Part shown: positions 2,308 through 48,378 of the stretch, piece after piece | Layout: each line of letters starts with the position of its first letter | Position numbering within the stretch: position 1 is the first letter of the stretch | Source: a virus | Length of the DNA: 64,000 nucleotides | Virus record (IMG/VR): IMGVR_UViG_3300023094_000009 | Location: 64,001 to 128,000 of that record | Direction: 5' to 3' (one strand) | Notes under the pieces: generated by a model | Database searches by the model: none | Seen by the model: the letters and a program-made list of their open reading frames with translations, nothing else | Told to the model about the DNA's origin: nothing | Made by a program: the position numbers and the translations under genes

Positions 2308-3218
2308 GCTTAGAGTCTATCAAGTTCCAATATTTTTCTGCGAATGTGTATGATACTTCTGTTTTGGGAAAAGTTTCTTTGTCTGACTTCATTAGAGCCA
2401 ATAAAAATCCTAAGCCTCGAGTAAAGGAAATCTTCAAGCAAATTGAGGAAGCGACTCTGGCGGGGGATTTAAAACTGAAAGGTAAACTAAAAACAGAAAA
2501 TCTTGTTTACTTTTGTCCTGCTTGTATGTTCCAATCGAGAAGGAGAAATGATGACATTATTTCAATAAATCCTATACTAGTTTTGGATTTTGACGGCTTA
2601 GACAATGCAGAGGAATTTAAGCAGTTCTTATTTGACTCTTGTTCTTTTATTATTTGTTGCTATTTATCACCCTCAAAATCAGGAGTTAAGGCATTGGTCT
2701 TGTTAGAAGATGGTATTGAAACTATAGAGGAGTGGAAAAGTTATTACTATGGATTAGCTTACTATATGTGTAAATACAAAGGCTTTGATTCCTCCTCCTC
2801 CTCAATATCGTTGCCTCTTTTCCTCTCCTATGATGAAAATCTCCTATATAGAGAAAATCCTACAACATGGACTCAAAAAGGAAAGAAAATAAATGAATTT
2901 GATTATAAGAGTGATGTTGAATTAACTTTTGAGGGAGAGAGAACTGAATATGAAAAGAACATTGTAAAAAAGAAAATTCGTACAATGATCGAGACTATTG
3001 AGGACAACGCGCACCCAACCGTCAGAAGCGTTTCCATACTCTGCGGAGGATACTGTGCATTTGGATACTTGACAGAGCAAGAAGCTAAAGAATTAATTTA
3101 TCAATTGATTGATGAAAATTCTTATACTTGTCAGAAGGCTAACAACTATAAAAAAACTGTTGATAAATTTCTAGTAGATGGTATGAAGCGACCTCTAGAA
3201 TTAGAACTAAACAATTGA
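2304..3218 (+). CDS. VirE N-terminal/BT4734-like (primase-polymerase-related) protein
   Basis: LVLDFDGL and YLSPSKSGVKALV motifs; helical C-terminal domain. Confidence 0.75.
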   Translation: MSLESIKFQYFSANVYDTSVLGKVSLSDFIRANKNPKPRVKEIFKQIEEATLAGDLKLKGKLKTENLVYFCPACMFQSRRRNDDIISINPILVLDFDGLDNAEEFKQFLFDSCSFIICCYLSPSKSGVKALVLLEDGIETIEEWKSYYYGLAYYMCKYKGFDSSSSSISLPLFLSYDENLLYRENPTTWTQKGKKINEFDYKSDVELTFEGERTEYEKNIVKKKIRTMIETIEDNAHPTVRSVSILCGGYCAFGYLTEQEAKELIYQLIDENSYTCQKANNYKKTVDKFLVDGMKRPLELELNN

Positions 3219-3222
3219 AAAT

Positions 3223-3468
3223 ATGACGTCACCACTAAGATTGTATCTCGTAGATTCTGTAACAGGAAAATGTACAGGTAAGAAAAGAGATTATCCTTCA
3301 GAAGCTCACTTCATTAAATATGGACGTGAAACTTATGAAAGGTATAACCGAGAGTACTACTACACTGACAAGCCCACTCACACCAAGGCTAAACTTTGTT
3401 TCCTCAATGAAGAGGGTAAATGGGAAGAAGCTAGTGAGGAGCAATTAAAAATTTTAACAACCCATTAA
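3223..3468 (+). CDS. hypothetical phage protein
   Basis: 81-aa ORF. Confidence 0.65.
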   Translation: MTSPLRLYLVDSVTGKCTGKKRDYPSEAHFIKYGRETYERYNREYYYTDKPTHTKAKLCFLNEEGKWEEASEEQLKILTTH

Positions 3469-3491
3469 CATTTTATCCAGTAAATAAACGT

Positions 3492-3499
3492 TAACTTTG
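3492..3499 (+). promoter_or_regulatory. -7 promoter element TAACTTTG
   Basis: TAnnTTTG in the intergenic gap before 3529. Confidence 0.7.
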
Positions 3500-3528
3500 T
3501 ACAAGGAAAATTTAAAATTTTACCAAAC

Positions 3529-4137
3529 ATGAAAAAAGAAGAAATATATGTCATAATTGACAGTGAGGAAAAGAAAAATAGGGCTGTTGAAATCCTCGAA
3601 AATGCAGGGGAGAAAATTTGGGATTCAGCAGATGCTTTAAGGTTTGATGATAATGATTGGTTTATAACGCATAGAGTAGAAGGTGAAGAAATTACCCTCG
3701 ATCAATTGGAAGAGTTGTTGATGCCTAAACTAGAATCAGAATACCCTCAAGAAATGCTTGTCTGGGACGAAATCGAAGAGCTTAAAATTCAAAAGACTGT
3801 TTTAGGCTTATTCAATGATCAATATGTAGTGTTTGATCCTTCTACAGATGGAGCTACTTATCTCACTTACTTGAATGCTTCTCCTATTGTTGAAGAACAG
3901 ATTCCCTTGATGACTTATACTTGTGGTAGGGGCGATATTAGTATTGGAGTTGGTGAGGATTATATTTCTTTTTCAGTTCTTTCTTCGCCCCGAAAAGTTG
4001 GTGAAGATATTACAGGAATGTATTTACCAGAGAGCGATTTAACAAAAGTGTATTTTGAAAATGTAGAATCTCTAGAAGTTTTGCAAGAGAAAGTTGATAC
4101 ATTGAGAAGATGGTTGCTCAGAAACAAAAAACAATAA
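3529..4137 (+). CDS. hypothetical phage protein
   Basis: 202-aa acidic ORF. Confidence 0.7.
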   Translation: MKKEEIYVIIDSEEKKNRAVEILENAGEKIWDSADALRFDDNDWFITHRVEGEEITLDQLEELLMPKLESEYPQEMLVWDEIEELKIQKTVLGLFNDQYVVFDPSTDGATYLTYLNASPIVEEQIPLMTYTCGRGDISIGVGEDYISFSVLSSPRKVGEDITGMYLPESDLTKVYFENVESLEVLQEKVDTLRRWLLRNKKQ

Positions 4138-4139
4138 TT

Positions 4140-4364
4140 ATGGAAAAATTAATTACATTTTTAACAGTAATTTCTTGGATTTCGGGGATTATTTCGACTA
4201 TCTGGTTCTTTAGTATTTTGATTAAAGTATCAAAGTATGAGGATTCTTTTCGAGGAATGGTTGATAGACGTTTAGGCGTTGACAGGACTTCTGAAGCTTA
4301 CACGTATGCGAGAAAGTGTTTTGTAGTTGCAATAGTATGTTGGACTTTTATCATTGTGTTTTAG
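4140..4364 (+). CDS. small two-TM membrane protein
   Basis: Two hydrophobic stretches; start reassigned to ATG 4140. Confidence 0.65.
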   Translation: MEKLITFLTVISWISGIISTIWFFSILIKVSKYEDSFRGMVDRRLGVDRTSEAYTYARKCFVVAIVCWTFIIVF

Positions 4365-43298: not shown

Positions 43299-44173
43299 CT
43301 TCTTCTGCCAATAACTGTGTAAGCATTTACAATCTGATTATCTTGGTATGATATCTTGTTTCCAAGTCTCTTCCAGTTCAGGTTGTTTGATTTTACTTCT
43401 GTTTGCGCGTTATGTCTTGCAGATCTTTCTTCCTGCTTCCATGGAGCATACAGACTCATAAGTCCTGCCACATTTTCTCCATTTGCTATAATCATTTCCG
43501 CTGTGGAAATCTTTAGGCGTAATTCTAGATATCTTTCCAAGTATCCATTTGGTGATTCTGGGATTTCAAGATTACCTTCCTTGTCCACAGGGAATCCATT
43601 GTATCGGATATAAATGTCACCTTCCTGAAAGTTTGCCCTTAATTCTCCGTTTATGATTGTAATTTCATCCTTGTCGCAATCATCATACATTTTTCTGTAT
43701 CCATCGAGACAATGCTTCTTGTCAAATGATTTGCTTAGCTTTAGGTATTTACCTTTCCGGTAATCAAACTTTGCAACTGAATTCTTGAAGTAAACTTCTT
43801 TCCTTACATATTCATCTGTCACTTCATGGCAACAGTCTTGGCACTCATTCCATCTGTCCTTTATCTGCTTCTCGTTCTGAATAAATCCTAGTCCAATCAA
43901 TGTCCTGTATTCTATTCCTCCCATGTCACATTTCTCAGGAGTACACATCATGGCAAGAGATAGCTTAAAGAAATTGTGTGGCAGATCAACTCTTCCATCC
44001 TTCAAGGTCAATACGTCTTCCTGCTGATAGCAGATATCGTTTCCAAAGGCTTTCAGTGACTGAATAATTTCTTTGTAAAGGTCATCTTCATCCACTAGCC
44101 CTGCGGTATCGTATTTTGCAAATGTTTTTTTAGTCTGAGCTACAAGGGCATCTACATTTCCTTTTAAATCCAT
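43295..44173 (-). CDS. tail tubular/ring protein (P22 gp4-like)
   Basis: Synteny with muzzle; NFQEGDIYIRY.G.PVD..G...IP motif. Confidence 0.75.
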   Translation of the reverse strand: MDLKGNVDALVAQTKKTFAKYDTAGLVDEDDLYKEIIQSLKAFGNDICYQQEDVLTLKDGRVDLPHNFFKLSLAMMCTPEKCDMGGIEYRTLIGLGFIQNEKQIKDRWNECQDCCHEVTDEYVRKEVYFKNSVAKFDYRKGKYLKLSKSFDKKHCLDGYRKMYDDCDKDEITIINGELRANFQEGDIYIRYNGFPVDKEGNLEIPESPNGYLERYLELRLKISTAEMIIANGENVAGLMSLYAPWKQEERSARHNAQTEVKSNNLNWKRLGNKISYQDNQIVNAYTVIGRRR

Positions 44174-44607
44174 TTTGTTTTCTTTAGAGAATAGTGGAAT
44201 GATTTATATCTTTTTCCGGCTTGGATGTTTTCTTTCAGTTTTTGTTTGTAGGCGCTTGAGAATGTCTTGTCCATCGTCCATTCTGATCTTGTCCTTACAG
44301 GGACATAGGTGGGGAAATATTGCCTGTTGTCAGTTTCAGTGCTGTAAATGTCTTTACTTACTCCAAAGGGATTCCACACCATCTTGCGCGGGCAGAGCCA
44401 GTTAAAGAAATATCCAAGACCTTTTATGTAAACACCTCCCTTTCTTTCCAGAGTCTCTTCAGCTATAATGTCAAAAAATTCCTTTACAACTTTAAAGTAT
44501 TTATCTCTTCCCTGAATCTTGAATTCCTTATTTATAGTGTTCCTGTATAAGGTGTATTCTGGTTTTTCTTTTAGAGATCGGGGAATGTATCGTTCTTCAC
44601 CTGTCAT
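44164..44607 (-). CDS. IHF/HU-like basic protein of the crAss-like tail module
   Basis: VYIKGLGYF motif; conserved position. Confidence 0.6.
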   Translation of the reverse strand: MTGEERYIPRSLKEKPEYTLYRNTINKEFKIQGRDKYFKVVKEFFDIIAEETLERKGGVYIKGLGYFFNWLCPRKMVWNPFGVSKDIYSTETDNRQYFPTYVPVRTRSEWTMDKTFSSAYKQKLKENIQAGKRYKSFHYSLKKTKWI

Positions 44608-45344
44608 CTAACTGTTGCTGATTTTTGATTCTCATCCATATTCGGATTTTCATCTTTTGGGATTGAAACCACTGTTGACATTAATTCTTGTAAAGTCATT
44701 GCCCTTACATTTTCAAGTAGGAGATCTGTTATAGGAAATTTCATATCCCACAAAGACTTACAATCATCTTTTTTCTTCTTGTCTCCGCATCCACAGTCTT
44801 CCACTTCCTCTTCATTTATGGCAATCATTCGGATTTTAACTGCTTCAATGTATTCAGTGATGAAAAGGTGTCCGTCTTCTATAAAATAGAAATAATCGTT
44901 TCCCGGTTTCTTGTATTTTAATTTTTTGCGGTTTTTAATCAATTCTGGGGTGGATGAGATAAACTCAATACTGTCATCAATGGAGTTAATAGAGAAAATA
45001 GCAATACCTGTCCTTCCATAAATTGTTTCAGGTATTTTACTAGTGGACTTCATTAATGTATTGCAATTGCTCAAATCAACAGAACAACATTCAATCCTGT
45101 CAACTTCTTCCATCTCAAAACAAGGGATGACAGAAATAAGATCAAAAGCATTTCTGAGCTTGAATTCATCTACTCTCTGTGCTAGAAGCATCTTTGCTTT
45201 TGACTTCCCTATGTGTAGAACGCTTCGTCTGCTAACCCACGTATCTTTGGACAACATTTTCAGCTCATTTATAATCCCTGATACAAAATCACCATTTGTG
45301 GCACCTCCCATACTTGATGAGCTTCCTTTTAAATTATTTTTCAT
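44604..45344 (-). CDS. tail ring/adaptor protein (start 45344 or 45311)
   Basis: Synteny; PCFEMEEVD...CC, KIPE and YFYFIEDGHLF patterns. Confidence 0.7.
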   Translation of the reverse strand: MKNNLKGSSSSMGGATNGDFVSGIINELKMLSKDTWVSRRSVLHIGKSKAKMLLAQRVDEFKLRNAFDLISVIPCFEMEEVDRIECCSVDLSNCNTLMKSTSKIPETIYGRTGIAIFSINSIDDSIEFISSTPELIKNRKKLKYKKPGNDYFYFIEDGHLFITEYIEAVKIRMIAINEEEVEDCGCGDKKKKDDCKSLWDMKFPITDLLLENVRAMTLQELMSTVVSIPKDENPNMDENQKSATVR

Positions 45345-45400
45345 AATTCTCTATTAGCGATTGCCCTCGCTGTTTAATTGTTAAACTTGCTTCAAAGTCT
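45280..45400 (-). ncRNA. putative TnpB omegaRNA plus guide (boundaries approximate)
   Basis: GAGGGCAATCGCT at the tnpB 3' end, then GAAGCTCAT-caagt-ATGGGAGGTGCCAC resembling IS200/IS605 right ends. Confidence 0.5.
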
Positions 45401-46437
45401 GCATTACCTTCATGATTGCATTTTATACATTTGAAGCTCTCTTGTGTTTTTCTGTTCTCCTTTGAGATGTGTCCACACTTTGAGCATTCCTGTGAAGTGT
45501 ATTTAGCATCTACCTTAATTACATTTGTTTTGTAAGATAAATATTTTCCAAATTTGTACCAACTGACATCCGAGATAGATTTTGAGTAATTCTTATCTTG
45601 AATCATTTCTGAAATTTTCAAGTCCTCTACAAAAACTGTTTGATAATTGTTAGCTAAACTTCTTGAGACTTTATGCAAGTAATCCTCTCTAACTCTCTGG
45701 ATTTTTAAGTAAACTTTTTTTACTTTCTCCACCTCCTTGTAAAAATTATTAGATCCTTTTTTCTTTAGAGATAATTTTCTTTGAACTTCAGCTAATTTAT
45801 CTGCATATTTTTTGGTTGTTTTTATATTTTCAAAAAACTTACCCTCAGAGGTAGCTACAAAATGTTTAATTCCTAAATCAATTCCTACTTCTGCTTGATT
45901 CTTGCATTTTTGGACTTCATGGTCGGTAATTATTTGTAGGTAGTACCCATCTGCTTTTTTGACTACTCTTGCTAATTTTATGTTTCCACTTATTTCTCTG
46001 CTTTTAAATATTTTTATTTTTCCTATTTTAGGTAAGATAAATCTACCATCTTTTTCAAACCTTAAACTGTGATGATTAGTTTTAGTATTTCCTTGCTTGA
46101 ATTCTATGGATTTCCAATCTTTCTTTTTAGCCCATTTTGGTGGATTTGTTTTAACACCTTTTTTTAAATCTGCATAAAATTTATCGTATCCTCTATATAA
46201 TCTTTCGATAATTCCTTGTAGTGTATGAGATTGGACACCCTTAATCCAAGTAAATTCCTTTTTTAGTGCAGGTAGTTGTTTCATTAAATCAAACTTACCT
46301 AAGCTTAAACCTTGTGAATAAGCATATTCCTTTGTTTCTTTCGCTAAATTATACACACAACGAGTTGTATTTAAATGGTCTTCAAACTTTTGTGTTAAAG
46401 TATGGGTTGTTTTTATTTTAAAGGTGTATGTGAGCAT
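45334..46437 (-). CDS. tnpB: RNA-guided endonuclease TnpB (IS200/IS605 family), solo
   Basis: HTH N-terminus (RCVYNLA); RuvC GIDLG / VEDL / NADFEAS intact; CSKC...CIKC zinc finger; no tnpA nearby. Confidence 0.95.
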   Translation of the reverse strand: MLTYTFKIKTTHTLTQKFEDHLNTTRCVYNLAKETKEYAYSQGLSLGKFDLMKQLPALKKEFTWIKGVQSHTLQGIIERLYRGYDKFYADLKKGVKTNPPKWAKKKDWKSIEFKQGNTKTNHHSLRFEKDGRFILPKIGKIKIFKSREISGNIKLARVVKKADGYYLQIITDHEVQKCKNQAEVGIDLGIKHFVATSEGKFFENIKTTKKYADKLAEVQRKLSLKKKGSNNFYKEVEKVKKVYLKIQRVREDYLHKVSRSLANNYQTVFVEDLKISEMIQDKNYSKSISDVSWYKFGKYLSYKTNVIKVDAKYTSQECSKCGHISKENRKTQESFKCIKCNHEGNADFEASLTIKQRGQSLIENYEK

Positions 46438-46459
46438 TAGTTGGTTTAAAATCTTCTAT

Positions 46460-46468
46460 GTAAAATTA
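46460..46468 (-). promoter_or_regulatory. putative promoter TAATTTTAC
   Basis: Same 9-mer at 32620-32628; TAATTTTAT at 55984-55992; each precedes an operon start. Confidence 0.5.
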
Positions 46469-46516
46469 GGAAGAAATTTACTCATTTTAAAATTAATTAC
46501 GTTTTACTACATAATC

Positions 46517-46544
46517 AAAAAGACCACTTTTGAGGGTGGTCTTT
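46517..46544 (-). terminator. intrinsic terminator
   Basis: AAAGACCAC...GTGGTCTTT plus T-run. Confidence 0.75.
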
Positions 46545-46572
46545 ATCTTATATTTTATAAATGAAAAAGTTT

Positions 46573-48378
46573 TTAGTATATCTTGATGGCTACAATTCCA
46601 GCCTCATTTACCCTGACATTTCCTAAACTAACTCCTCCTGCCAAACTTCCCCAGATTTCAATCACATCTCCTGTGGTAGCTGTTGTGTAGGTTATAGTTT
46701 GGATATCTGCATCTCCCGCTGTTTGAGTTAATAATGTGAGAATTGGAATGTTAAACACAGCTGTGGTGTTACTTAAGTCTCCTGCTGTATTATTAGTCCG
46801 TCTCAGCTTAAACGTTGCTGAATTTGCCACTAAAGTTGTAAGTCCTACATAATCTACTTTAACATTTGAGAGAATCAAGTATGTACCTGCTGAAGGTAAT
46901 GTAACTGTAGAGCTTGTTGTTCCACCTGAAATTTTAGCTGAACTGGTTGTTAGATTATAGCCAGTTCCTGTTAAATATCCTGATGGGGAATTGCCAGAAG
47001 CTGGCGAAGAAGAAGGTGCTTGCCATGACACTGATGATCCGTTTGTGGAGAGCATTTTACCCGACTGTCCAGTTTGAGAAGGTAATTCTATTTCATTTGT
47101 CACTGAGCCGTCTACTTCTGCTGTTAAATATACACTGTTATCATAACTAATTGTTGTCCCTGTTGCTTTAACAAATCCGGCTCCATTTAACTGACTTTGT
47201 TTGCCGTTTACATTTGTAGTGAGTGTGTTTATGGAACTCATTGCTGCATTACTAGTCATAATTTTACCAGAAGGAAATGTATCTGATATAAGAGCATACT
47301 TAGCATCTGTTGCCGTTTTGGTGTAATAGTTTGTGTTGGCGGTTGCTGTTTTTAGATATGGTGACAGCATTGAAGATGTATCCGAAATATTCACTTTGAG
47401 ATTCAAAGCTGTTTGAGTGGCAGTAGATACTGGCTTGGAAGCATCACTAGTATTATCTGCATTTCCAAGTCCTACTTGACCCTTATTCATATTTGTCAAT
47501 AATGATCCATTTCCTGTCTTCTTTAGGTATGGAGAGAGCATTGTTAAGCTATCTGAAATATGAACTGAAAGGGGATCGGTTTCTGCTGTTAAGAATCCTG
47601 ACCCGTTTGTAAGTTGATTTGTGTTTGTCGGAATTGTAGGTTTATTTGTAAGATTATTGTAGTCTCCATTAAAAAGTGTCGGAAGACCGATCAAGTCAGA
47701 GTATAAACCACTTGTAGCTACAGTAGAGAAAGTAGGTTTGCCTGTAATAGCTGACCAACTCACTGAACTCAAATATCCATTCGGATTTGTAGCCCCATTG
47801 TAGGGTGTATAACCAATAATCGGCTGATAAGTGGAGGATGCAATAACTGATGTCAGATATCCAGCAGAAGCATGATTACCCCATCCAAAAGCTGTATTCC
47901 AATTGGTAACATTCGTTCCTGTAATTCCATGGGAAGGTGATGTTATCCATAAAGGATCTGTTTCAGTGTAGGAAGTCAGGTATGTTCCCTTCTTCTGCCA
48001 TTTACTAGTTGTGTCCGTAATAAGCAGATACTTGCTTCCTAGAGCAGTTCTTAACACTGTCAGGGAGTCCTTTACCTGAATTGGGGTTGTAAAAGTGGTA
48101 TAAGATATATTTTTTAATCTTCCTGATGGAGTAGAAATTACTAATCTGTTACCTGTTCCAGAAAGGTACTTGAATGCTACAGAGTCTTGGTGAAAATATA
48201 CATAAATTGAATCTCTTAATTTAAACCAAACTTTTCTGTTTCCCGAAGTGCTTCCAGGAGACATGGTTCGATACATTTCATAGCTTCCATCAATAGTGTT
48301 TCCATTTGCTCCTGTAGCATTTTGAGAAAATGTATTTAATCCAAAAAGTAAAAATAATGCTAAAATTGTGTTCTTCAT
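46573..48378 (-). CDS. fibre-like protein with N-terminal signal peptide
   Basis: MKNTILALFLLFGLNTFSQ; ETDP, WNTAFGWGNHA, L.NKP and GLGNADNTSDASKPVSTA fibre motifs. Confidence 0.7.
   Translation of the reverse strand: MKNTILALFLLFGLNTFSQNATGANGNTIDGSYEMYRTMSPGSTSGNRKVWFKLRDSIYVYFHQDSVAFKYLSGTGNRLVISTPSGRLKNISYTTFTTPIQVKDSLTVLRTALGSKYLLITDTTSKWQKKGTYLTSYTETDPLWITSPSHGITGTNVTNWNTAFGWGNHASAGYLTSVIASSTYQPIIGYTPYNGATNPNGYLSSVSWSAITGKPTFSTVATSGLYSDLIGLPTLFNGDYNNLTNKPTIPTNTNQLTNGSGFLTAETDPLSVHISDSLTMLSPYLKKTGNGSLLTNMNKGQVGLGNADNTSDASKPVSTATQTALNLKVNISDTSSMLSPYLKTATANTNYYTKTATDAKYALISDTFPSGKIMTSNAAMSSINTLTTNVNGKQSQLNGAGFVKATGTTISYDNSVYLTAEVDGSVTNEIELPSQTGQSGKMLSTNGSSVSWQAPSSSPASGNSPSGYLTGTGYNLTTSSAKISGGTTSSTVTLPSAGTYLILSNVKVDYVGLTTLVANSATFKLRRTNNTAGDLSNTTAVFNIPILTLLTQTAGDADIQTITYTTATTGDVIEIWGSLAGGVSLGNVRVNEAGIVAIKIY

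Follow-up and report, generated by a model that had tools for sequence, protein, structure and literature searches.

IS608, a transposon of the IS200/IS605 family, follows a pattern in which the transposon-associated motif (TAM) is TTAC and the right end of the element is TCAA. The promoters of IS605-family transposons are repressed by Arc, a ribbon-helix-helix (RHH) protein (Moon et al., bioRxiv 10.64898/2026.09.24.754181). In crAss-like phages, tnpB genes have been noted with no functional analysis (PMC11054128), and homing of TnpB elements from one co-infecting phage to another has so far been put forward only in theory (PMC13565253). Here, we analyze a tnpB cassette that lies at the start of the gene for ring protein 2 (ring-2) in a stretch of 64,000 nucleotides of viral DNA (positions 64,001 to 128,000 of IMG/VR record IMGVR_UViG_3300023094_000009), which we call the window. 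The window is part of a 141-kb record of a crAss-like phage, and its source is probably a leaf-litter metagenome. A preliminary description, made from the letters of the window, had proposed that the cassette is an RNA-guided homing endonuclease. We conclude that it is probably an immobilised IS608-like (IS200/IS605) TnpB remnant, i.e., a locked-in passenger, from a lineage that circulates in phages.

The TnpB protein matches the Pfam families OrfB_IS605 (1.3e-24) and Cas12f1-like_TNB (PF07282, 4.4e-15), with a weak match to HTH_OrfB, and it matches PHROG 506 at 1.4e-87. In an alignment of 30 TnpB sequences, the RuvC residues D187, E271 and D347 are invariant, as are the zinc-finger residues C318, C321, C337 and C340, and the catalytic residues of the window's protein align to the RuvC motifs in the solved TnpB structures 8exa/8h1j. 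Pairwise dN/dS between the window's tnpB and nine relatives is 0.10-0.17. Both the TnpB and its RNA scaffold look functional. A nuclease-dead repressor of the TldR type was rejected, as the RuvC catalytic triad is intact. No Y1 TnpA (PF01797) was found in the whole 141-kb genome by a search that did detect it in 6 of 14 control genomes. When the DNA is aligned with full-length relatives, the homology starts at position 46438, 1 nt before the tnpB ATG, and reaches the right end of the element; in this comparison, the window's copy retains none of the left-end hairpin, the promoter and the Arc/RHH gene. We also rejected a complete mobile IS200/IS605 (IS608-like) transposon, since there is no TnpA, no left-end hairpin with its TAM, and the right-end tip is altered.

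At E<=1e-30, about 1,300 homologues of the window's TnpB were found, with roughly 75 cluster representatives that are 66-79% identical. Every genomic context of the clade that was fetched is phage-like DNA, with small open reading frames (ORFs) and genes such as those for D12 methylase, PolB exonuclease, RecA, PhoH, SegE, Thy1 and GroEL, and the clade of >70%-identical TnpB proteins was met solely in phage-like contigs. The best prokaryotic relatives, from Cytophagales, are only 35-41% identical (one genome per species was searched). Most copies, including relatives that are 70-79% identical to the window's TnpB, have a common layout that consists of a structured left-end hairpin, a promoter, a 44-aa RHH gene, tnpB and a right end that reads ...GGGAGTTGTCAA. 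The promoter of the relatives carries a perfect TAnnTTTG box, and the stop codon of their RHH gene overlaps the tnpB ATG (TAATG). The RHH protein scores as NikA-like/RelB/CopG and corresponds to the recently described Arc repressor of IS605-family transposons. This gene and its promoter are present in L003, L004, L008-L019, L029, L039 and L042. A weak DNA match between the relatives' RHH region and positions 4120-4181 of the window was set aside, as there is no related protein there.

The TAM and the right end of the family can be read from an element whose protein, P0031, is identical in at least 24 contigs. This element has three different right-hand flanks in sister phages, and we found the uninterrupted site for two of them. 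In one pair, the empty site reads ...GGTTTAT followed by AACATATT..., and the filled site reads ...GTTGTCAA followed by AACATATT.... In the other pair, the empty ...AGATTAT and the filled ...GTTGTCAA are both followed by TAAAAAGT.... From these two pairs it follows that the TAM is 5'-TTAT, and that the right end stops exactly after TCAA. The left flank ends in TTAT or TTAC in five contexts, 16-18 nt before the left-end hairpin, and the termini and TAM of the family match the IS608 type. Some copies are truncated on the left to differing extents (L003, L008, L038 and L042) and still keep tnpB and the right end intact. Scanning IMG/VR with the conserved right-end pattern returned two contigs that had already been found and nothing further.

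Sequence conservation extends through to the right end in ten copies, with compensatory changes in two hairpins of the presumed omegaRNA. One hairpin, at approximately 45356-45371, pairs AGCGA with TCGCT; in L003 and L029, these strands are AGCGT and ACGCT. The terminal hairpin pairs CTCAT (45321-45317) with ATGGG (45311-45307) in the window, and covaries among copies as CCCAT/ATGGG, CCCAC/GTGGG, CCCTG/CAGGG and TCTCT/AGAGA. The window's right-end tip is the most divergent among the ten copies, and the hairpin itself is kept. The right end reads ...ATGGGAGGTGCCAC and then AAATGGTGATTTTG, and the next ORF encodes crAss Ring_2 with the codons T-N-G-D-F. Because the boundary of the right end falls between 45298 and 45297, the guide is predicted to occupy the 20 nt beyond it (Table 1). 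Guide-like sites elsewhere in the genome are chance-level matches only, and there is no second good match. Searches with Rfam in 44800-46900 and in five related loci detected no omegaRNA or intron family at E<=1, and the only match was a tRNA in L008. An IStron was likewise rejected, as Rfam finds no group I intron ribozyme (E<=1) in 44800-46900.

We then compared the locus with alleles that have no cassette. A search with ring-2 yielded relatives at 92, 84, 82 and 81% protein identity, all of which are without tnpB. The corresponding empty alleles (L020/21, L022-25, L026 and L027/28) have 72-80% DNA identity to the window, the closest being at 80%. Their contigs are syntenic, with a fibre gene, ring-2, a 147-aa gene, ring-1 and a giant protein, and the cassette is thus present or absent at an orthologous site, with four TnpB-free alleles in a syntenic context. 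In order, the empty alleles contain a terminator or gene end, TTATGTA..TAATTAATTTT, a box with the consensus (C/T)TAA(T/C)TTT(A/G)(C/T)A, a leader of 3-7 nt and the ring-2 start, ATG A(C/A)N AA(T/C) GG, which encodes M-[T/N/K]-N-G. Among 14 ring-2 proteins, 8 start with M-[T/N/K]-[N/Q/K]-G-[D/E]-F, and the other 6 have one to three extra residues (MVTQGEF in three cases, MITCGEF, MITNNEF in L001, and MGKITKGEF). In L026, the box, TAATTTTG, is a perfect Bacteroidota -7 element (TAnnTTTG), which supports a promoter with a very short leader. A sigma-70 scan was uninformative for a promoter of this Bacteroidota type, and the promoter-like motifs TAATTAATTTT and CTAATTTTACA do not occur above chance frequency in the window.

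In the window, the promoter-like box occupies 46469-46459, with a TTAC inside it at 46463-46460. When the window is aligned with L020 using blastn, the homology on the left spans 46542-46459 (79% identical), and the homology on the right begins at 45296 (45299 for L022 and L026). These limits define an insert at 45300-46458 (1,159 nt). Relative to the empty alleles, the short ring-2 leader and the native ATG are absent from the window. The segment of 21 nt that separates the native box from tnpB was compared with the tails of the relatives' RHH genes. Its score is 10, a value that 85 of 2000 shuffles and 22 of 1730 genomic 25-mers also attain, and it is suggestive only that this segment is a remnant of the 3' end of a lost Arc/RHH gene. 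A left end of the TTGAT type at 46518-46514 was considered and discarded; this sequence is native phage DNA, being the tail of the terminator, and is common to the empty alleles.

The empty alleles were also inspected as potential targets of the TnpB. At the position of the TAM, all four have TGAA or TGAC, as against TTAT or TTAC in the family. The guide has 2, 3, 3 and 4 mismatches to the four alleles, and the TAM-proximal base is always among them. A cuttable target, i.e., a TAM directly 5' of a guide match, was found in none of these four alleles. A scan of JGI metagenomes with a degenerate pattern for the ring-2 5' end gave no match. Hypothetically, a strain-level empty allele of the window's phage would read CTAATTTTACA-leader-ATG-ACAAATGG. 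The insertion may have had either of two histories. In one, a canonical insertion occurred 3' of the TTAC at 46463-46460, and was followed by loss of the region from the left end to Arc and by a deletion of about 8 nt at the right junction; in the other, a non-canonical insertion occurred after ATGAC, and was followed by a deletion on the left side. With either history, none of the known empty alleles has a family TAM next to the guide register.

Upstream of the Thr codon ACA (45299-45297), the only ATGs in frame with ring-2 are those at 45311 and 45344, and the next ATG downstream would remove 14 conserved ring-2 residues. The ATG at 45311 is most likely the new ring-2 start; the A-T pair that creates it occurs in only some copies of the element. 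The ATG at 45344 would allow translational coupling to tnpB, and the N-terminus of ring-2 is in this case predicted to be MKNNLKGSSSSMGG.... The most unusual feature of the locus would be this donation of a start codon to an essential virion gene by the end of a transposon's guide RNA. TnpB is reported to process its own mRNA into omegaRNA (PMC10278001). Once TnpB had bound or processed a transcript as omegaRNA, this transcript would be unable to double as ring-2 mRNA, and a conflict or a regulatory link is conceivable.

Much of the anatomy given in the preliminary description is borne out by these comparisons, and all the sequence features that it describes lie at the coordinates that it gives. 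It had reported a solo, intact D-E-D tnpB without TnpA and without a left-end hairpin, which agrees with the invariant triad, the negative genome search for TnpA and the start of homology at 46438. The right boundary that it had placed at 45298/45297 equals the family right end, ...GTTGTCAA, directly after which the flank begins in the two filled/empty pairs. It had also claimed that the right end of the cassette provides a replacement in-frame ATG for ring-2 (45311 or 45344), and, compared with the empty alleles, the native ring-2 ATG is indeed gone. Its proposal that the cassette borrows both a promoter and a start codon is only half sustained: the cassette is right behind the conserved promoter-like box of the ring operon, but ATG CTC ACA encodes TnpB's own M-L-T.

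Table 1. Features of the tnpB/ring-2 locus, in window coordinates.
Feature	Position	Strand	Remarks
Fibre-like gene	46573-48378	minus	601 aa; upstream of tnpB cassette
Intrinsic terminator hairpin after fibre-like gene	46519-46544	minus	from terminator scan; homologous hairpin at same place in L020
Native intergenic region with promoter-like box, TTATGTA..TAATTAATTTT..CTAATTTTACA	46459-46515	minus	conserved in four TnpB-free relatives
Junction segment, native box to tnpB ATG	46438-46458	minus	21 nt; absent from empty alleles
tnpB	45334-46437	minus	367 aa; intact RuvC D187/E271/D347 and C4 zinc finger
Presumed omegaRNA scaffold/right end	45298-45470	minus	overlaps tnpB 3' end; 5' limit approximate
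Alternative in-frame ATG	45342-45344	minus	8 nt before tnpB stop; 15-aa N-terminal extension
In-frame ATG in 3' arm of terminal omegaRNA hairpin	45309-45311	minus	reads ATG GGA GGT GCC ACA (MGGA-TNGDF)
Right-end tip, GGTGCCAC	45298-45305	minus	GTTGTCAA in 8 of 10 relatives; cleavage tetranucleotide TCAA changed to CCAC
Predicted 20-nt guide, AAATGGTGATTTTGTATCAG	45278-45297	minus	equals ring-2 codons 2-8
ORF containing ring-2	44604-45344	minus	Pfam CrAss_Ring_2 (PF25702), 4.5e-24
Ring protein 2 coding sequence	44604-45299	minus	native codon 2 (ACA, Thr) to stop; PF25702

The neighbouring genes are all on the minus strand and have a crAss-like order, with a weak CrAss_Ring_1 match after the ring-2 ORF, and then a giant protein of 2,296 aa. 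The ring-2 protein is 92% identical in amino acids to P0121. The 3.3 kb downstream of the cassette are 80% identical to L020, and the fibre-like gene shares a few alignable patches of 36-100 nt with positions 82-1890 of L020. The cassette therefore lies on a mosaic boundary, exactly where a variable fibre module meets a conserved ring module. A search of INPHARED phages with 4.4 kb around the locus gave short, unrelated fibre-repeat matches and no close phage. Among public sequencing runs, the sequence was located in one DNA run, that of a leaf-litter metagenome, and no RNA run is listed as containing it. In an independent Logan assembly of the leaf-litter run, the phage is a single contig of 141,177 nt. 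The ends of this contig overlap at positions 46549-46572 of the window and so form a circle (circularly permuted or terminally redundant); the IMG/VR label is linear. There is no skipped (empty) form among the contigs of the source run, although contigs cannot reveal rare variants.

Additional observations concern the related copies. L010-L019, with the identical TnpB P0031, have a constant 110-nt left flank (TAACTCTTCGC...GGGTTTATTTAT) and three right flanks, each of which starts exactly after a TTAT of sister contigs, with the intervening genes gone. This pattern resembles the outcome of a local jump of the element to a TTAT further downstream and subsequent recombination between the two copies (right-end-adjacent deletions); co-conversion of the left flank could look similar. 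In L003 (4169-5767; IMGVR_UViG_3300042455_001551), 5 nt separate the end of a related TnpB cassette from the TTG at which a phage GroEL-like (Cpn60) gene probably starts, and an ATG overlapping the tnpB stop codon is in frame with this gene through the right end. In L008, a comparable read-through ORF of 98 aa has no ATG of its own near the junction, and its start may likewise be donated. L038 (2253-3598) and the P0038 contigs are also without an Arc gene. In L038, the surroundings are T4-like (RecA, PhoH, SegE GIY-YIG), and tnpB directly overlaps the stop codon of a thioredoxin-like gene, with about 10 nt that resemble the tail of an RHH gene. Truncation of the left side close to the tnpB ATG seems to recur. 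L019 carries two different TnpB genes (382-1464 and 2464-3633; 360 and 389 aa) within 2 kb.

In complete relatives, the element consists of a TTAT TAM followed by the left-end hairpin, promoter, 44-aa Arc-type RHH repressor, tnpB and the omegaRNA scaffold ending in ...GTTGTCAA. We propose that it is reduced here to tnpB and the omegaRNA scaffold, plus some 21 nt from the tail of the RHH gene. This 1,159-nt block lies directly after the promoter-like box of the ring operon, in place of the 3-7-nt leader and native ATG of ring-2. In such an arrangement, tnpB would be the first gene transcribed from the ring-operon promoter and would be freed of Arc repression, and translation of ring-2 would have to begin at one of the element's own ATGs, at 45311 or 45344. 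The cassette would be immobile by the TnpA route, because TnpA and a left end are missing, and because CCAC stands at its right-end tip in place of TCAA. It would also be hard to lose, because imprecise deletion would take the ring-2 start with it. We speak of a locked-in passenger rather than a demonstrated homing device because the sampled TnpB-free alleles lack the family TAM and have mismatches in the seed.

It is important to consider several points that weigh against this proposal. While we directly observe how the locus is built and bounded, what its empty alleles look like and which TAM its family has, we infer from the DNA that the locus is transcribed, that it has a promoter and an omegaRNA, which start codon ring-2 uses, and that the TnpB is active. 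Moreover, our measurement of the family TAM comes from a copy with 74-75% identity, and the preference of the window's TnpB could differ. The closest empty allele has 80% DNA identity, so the ancestral site and the mode of insertion (canonical or illegitimate) are ambiguous. Finally, the intact ORF and the purifying selection across the family, including left-truncated copies, hint at a function beyond that of a passenger.

One such function would be that of an active RNA-guided nuclease for homing or exclusion, with a changed or relaxed TAM. In a co-infection, it would cut very close TnpB-free strains at ATGAC/AAATGGTG..., and either the cassette would be copied in or the competitor would be destroyed ("non-restorative homing"). 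This idea draws on the intact nuclease and RNA scaffold, on purifying selection that extends to family members without left ends, and on the polymorphic presence of the cassette at one locus among related phages. Its position at a mosaic boundary, which resembles that of free-standing homing genes of T-even phages (reviewed in PMC13565253), and the confinement of its clade to phage-like contigs are also favorable. However, we consider it unlikely, given that all four empty alleles have TGAA or TGAC where the family has TTAT or TTAC, that the guide mismatches include position 1, that no second phage has the cassette at this locus, and that the TnpB cluster has one member. The homing into empty alleles that was suggested in the preliminary description is not supported, given the same missing TAM and the same 2-4 guide mismatches; for strain-level relatives it would be unlikely, and would require that the TAM of this TnpB has drifted. 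A bolder version, which strikes us as quite improbable, is that a virulent phage uses a nuclease whose TAM has drifted to, e.g., TGAC (the ATG-AC of the ring start), so that it would cut sister strains at an essential tail gene, and that the guide-RNA hairpin would impose addiction through the start codon. The specific model of the preliminary description must be regarded as very unlikely. It held that the element and ring-2 share the ring ATG via a CAC/A junction, that the empty allele reads ATGCTCAC/AAATGG with TCAC as the TAM, that CCAC makes the filled allele immune, and that empty relatives are homed into or cut. Its arithmetic is sound, as deleting 45298-46429 does yield ATG CTC ACA AAT GGT and hence an open ring-2 start; its right-end boundary is correct, and MITNNEF in L001, which is distant (39% identity), superficially resembles the MLTNGDF that it predicts. 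However, the left CAC/A junction is TnpB's own Thr3 codon. M1 and T3 of TnpB are nearly invariant, Y4 is invariant, and M-[L/I]-T-Y-T-F is the nearly invariant N-terminus in the 30 homologues and in every DNA copy; the tnpB genes of the relatives start with ATG TTA ACN, ATG ATA ACC or ATG ATT ACA. In addition, comparison with the empty alleles puts the left limit of the insert at 46458, 21 nt upstream of the tnpB ATG, and the matching CAC/A 4-mer at both ends was chosen post hoc and carries no weight. The alignment that the preliminary description had itself named as a check on its predicted empty allele, ATGCTCACAAATGG (MLTNGDF), shows that the actual alleles read ATG A(C/A)N AA(T/C) GG after their 3-7-nt leader, and that none has the Leu codon or a TCAC 5' of the target (TGAA/TGAC instead). 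With a family TAM of TTAT, the reading based on a shared start codon and a TCAC TAM fails against real empty alleles.

A different function would be regulatory. By analogy with the conflict in IStrons, TnpB bound to the omegaRNA scaffold of a tnpB-ring-2 transcript might hide or cleave off the ATG at 45311, and thereby tune the amount of ring-2. The presence of a start codon inside a covarying hairpin, the reported processing by TnpB of its own mRNA into omegaRNA (PMC10278001), and the RNA-level conflict documented for IStrons (PMC10690162) could all be accommodated by such an exapted regulator. However, this possibility is purely conjectural, its catalytic residues are kept, unlike those of known nuclease-dead regulators derived from TnpB, it has a single occurrence, and translation could begin at 45344 instead; we judge it distinctly doubtful. 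There is also the technical explanation that the TnpB block was mis-joined into the phage contig during assembly. Although the sequence comes from a single source sample and no other genome has the insertion, the Logan contig is identical to the window over 44000-47500, at a depth of 12.7, and has no variants and no loose ends at the cassette junctions. The fact that ring-2 is in frame with the right-end ATG also speaks against a chimera, which we therefore find hardly credible.

The immobilised-remnant reading would make this locus a natural example of a TnpB that is stranded in a phage yet hard to lose, having taken over a late promoter and given an essential virion gene its start codon. Beyond this locus, the analysis defines a phage-borne Arc-TnpB lineage, with its TAM, TTAT, and its right end, ...GTTGTCAA, read from filled and empty sites. 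These sites are concrete substrates for asking whether TnpB nucleases act in phage-phage competition.

The locus can be compared with several known systems. With IS608/ISHp608-type elements it shares the TnpB fold and motifs, and a presumed omegaRNA scaffold that overlaps the 3' end of tnpB, and its complete relatives share the left-end hairpin 16-18 nt after TTAT/TTAC and the TCAA right end. It differs in that TnpA is absent from every phage copy seen, and in that the window's copy is without a left end and has the tip CCAC. The relatives also share, with the Arc-containing IS605 transposons (bioRxiv 10.64898/2026.09.24.754181), a 44-aa RHH gene and promoter directly upstream of tnpB. In contrast, the window's copy has lost Arc and this promoter, and, by its position, would be driven from a promoter of the phage's structural operon. 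Immobilised or exapted TnpBs (Altae-Tran et al. 2023, PMC10691335) are likewise fixed at one locus, without transposase or complete ends; however, those clades are mostly catalytically rearranged or dead and linked to a partner, whereas the window's TnpB keeps D-E-D and has no partner. T-even free-standing homing genes (SegF, SegB and Mob) and the proposed "transposon non-restorative homing" (PMC13565253) also involve a nuclease gene that is optional, being carried by one phage and missing from its relatives, and that is flanked by conserved phage genes on a mosaic boundary, but here the sampled relatives have no cuttable target, and recognition would be RNA-guided and TAM-dependent. As in IStrons (PMC10690162), a TnpB element is located in or at the start of a gene, with a guide RNA overlapping sequence that is needed for expression of the host gene. 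Unlike in IStrons, no group I intron was detected, and the host gene would be rescued by a donated start codon and not by splicing. In terms of known systems, the cassette is thus a degenerate copy of an IS200/IS605 TnpB-omegaRNA unit, and its twist is the capture of a promoter and a start codon.

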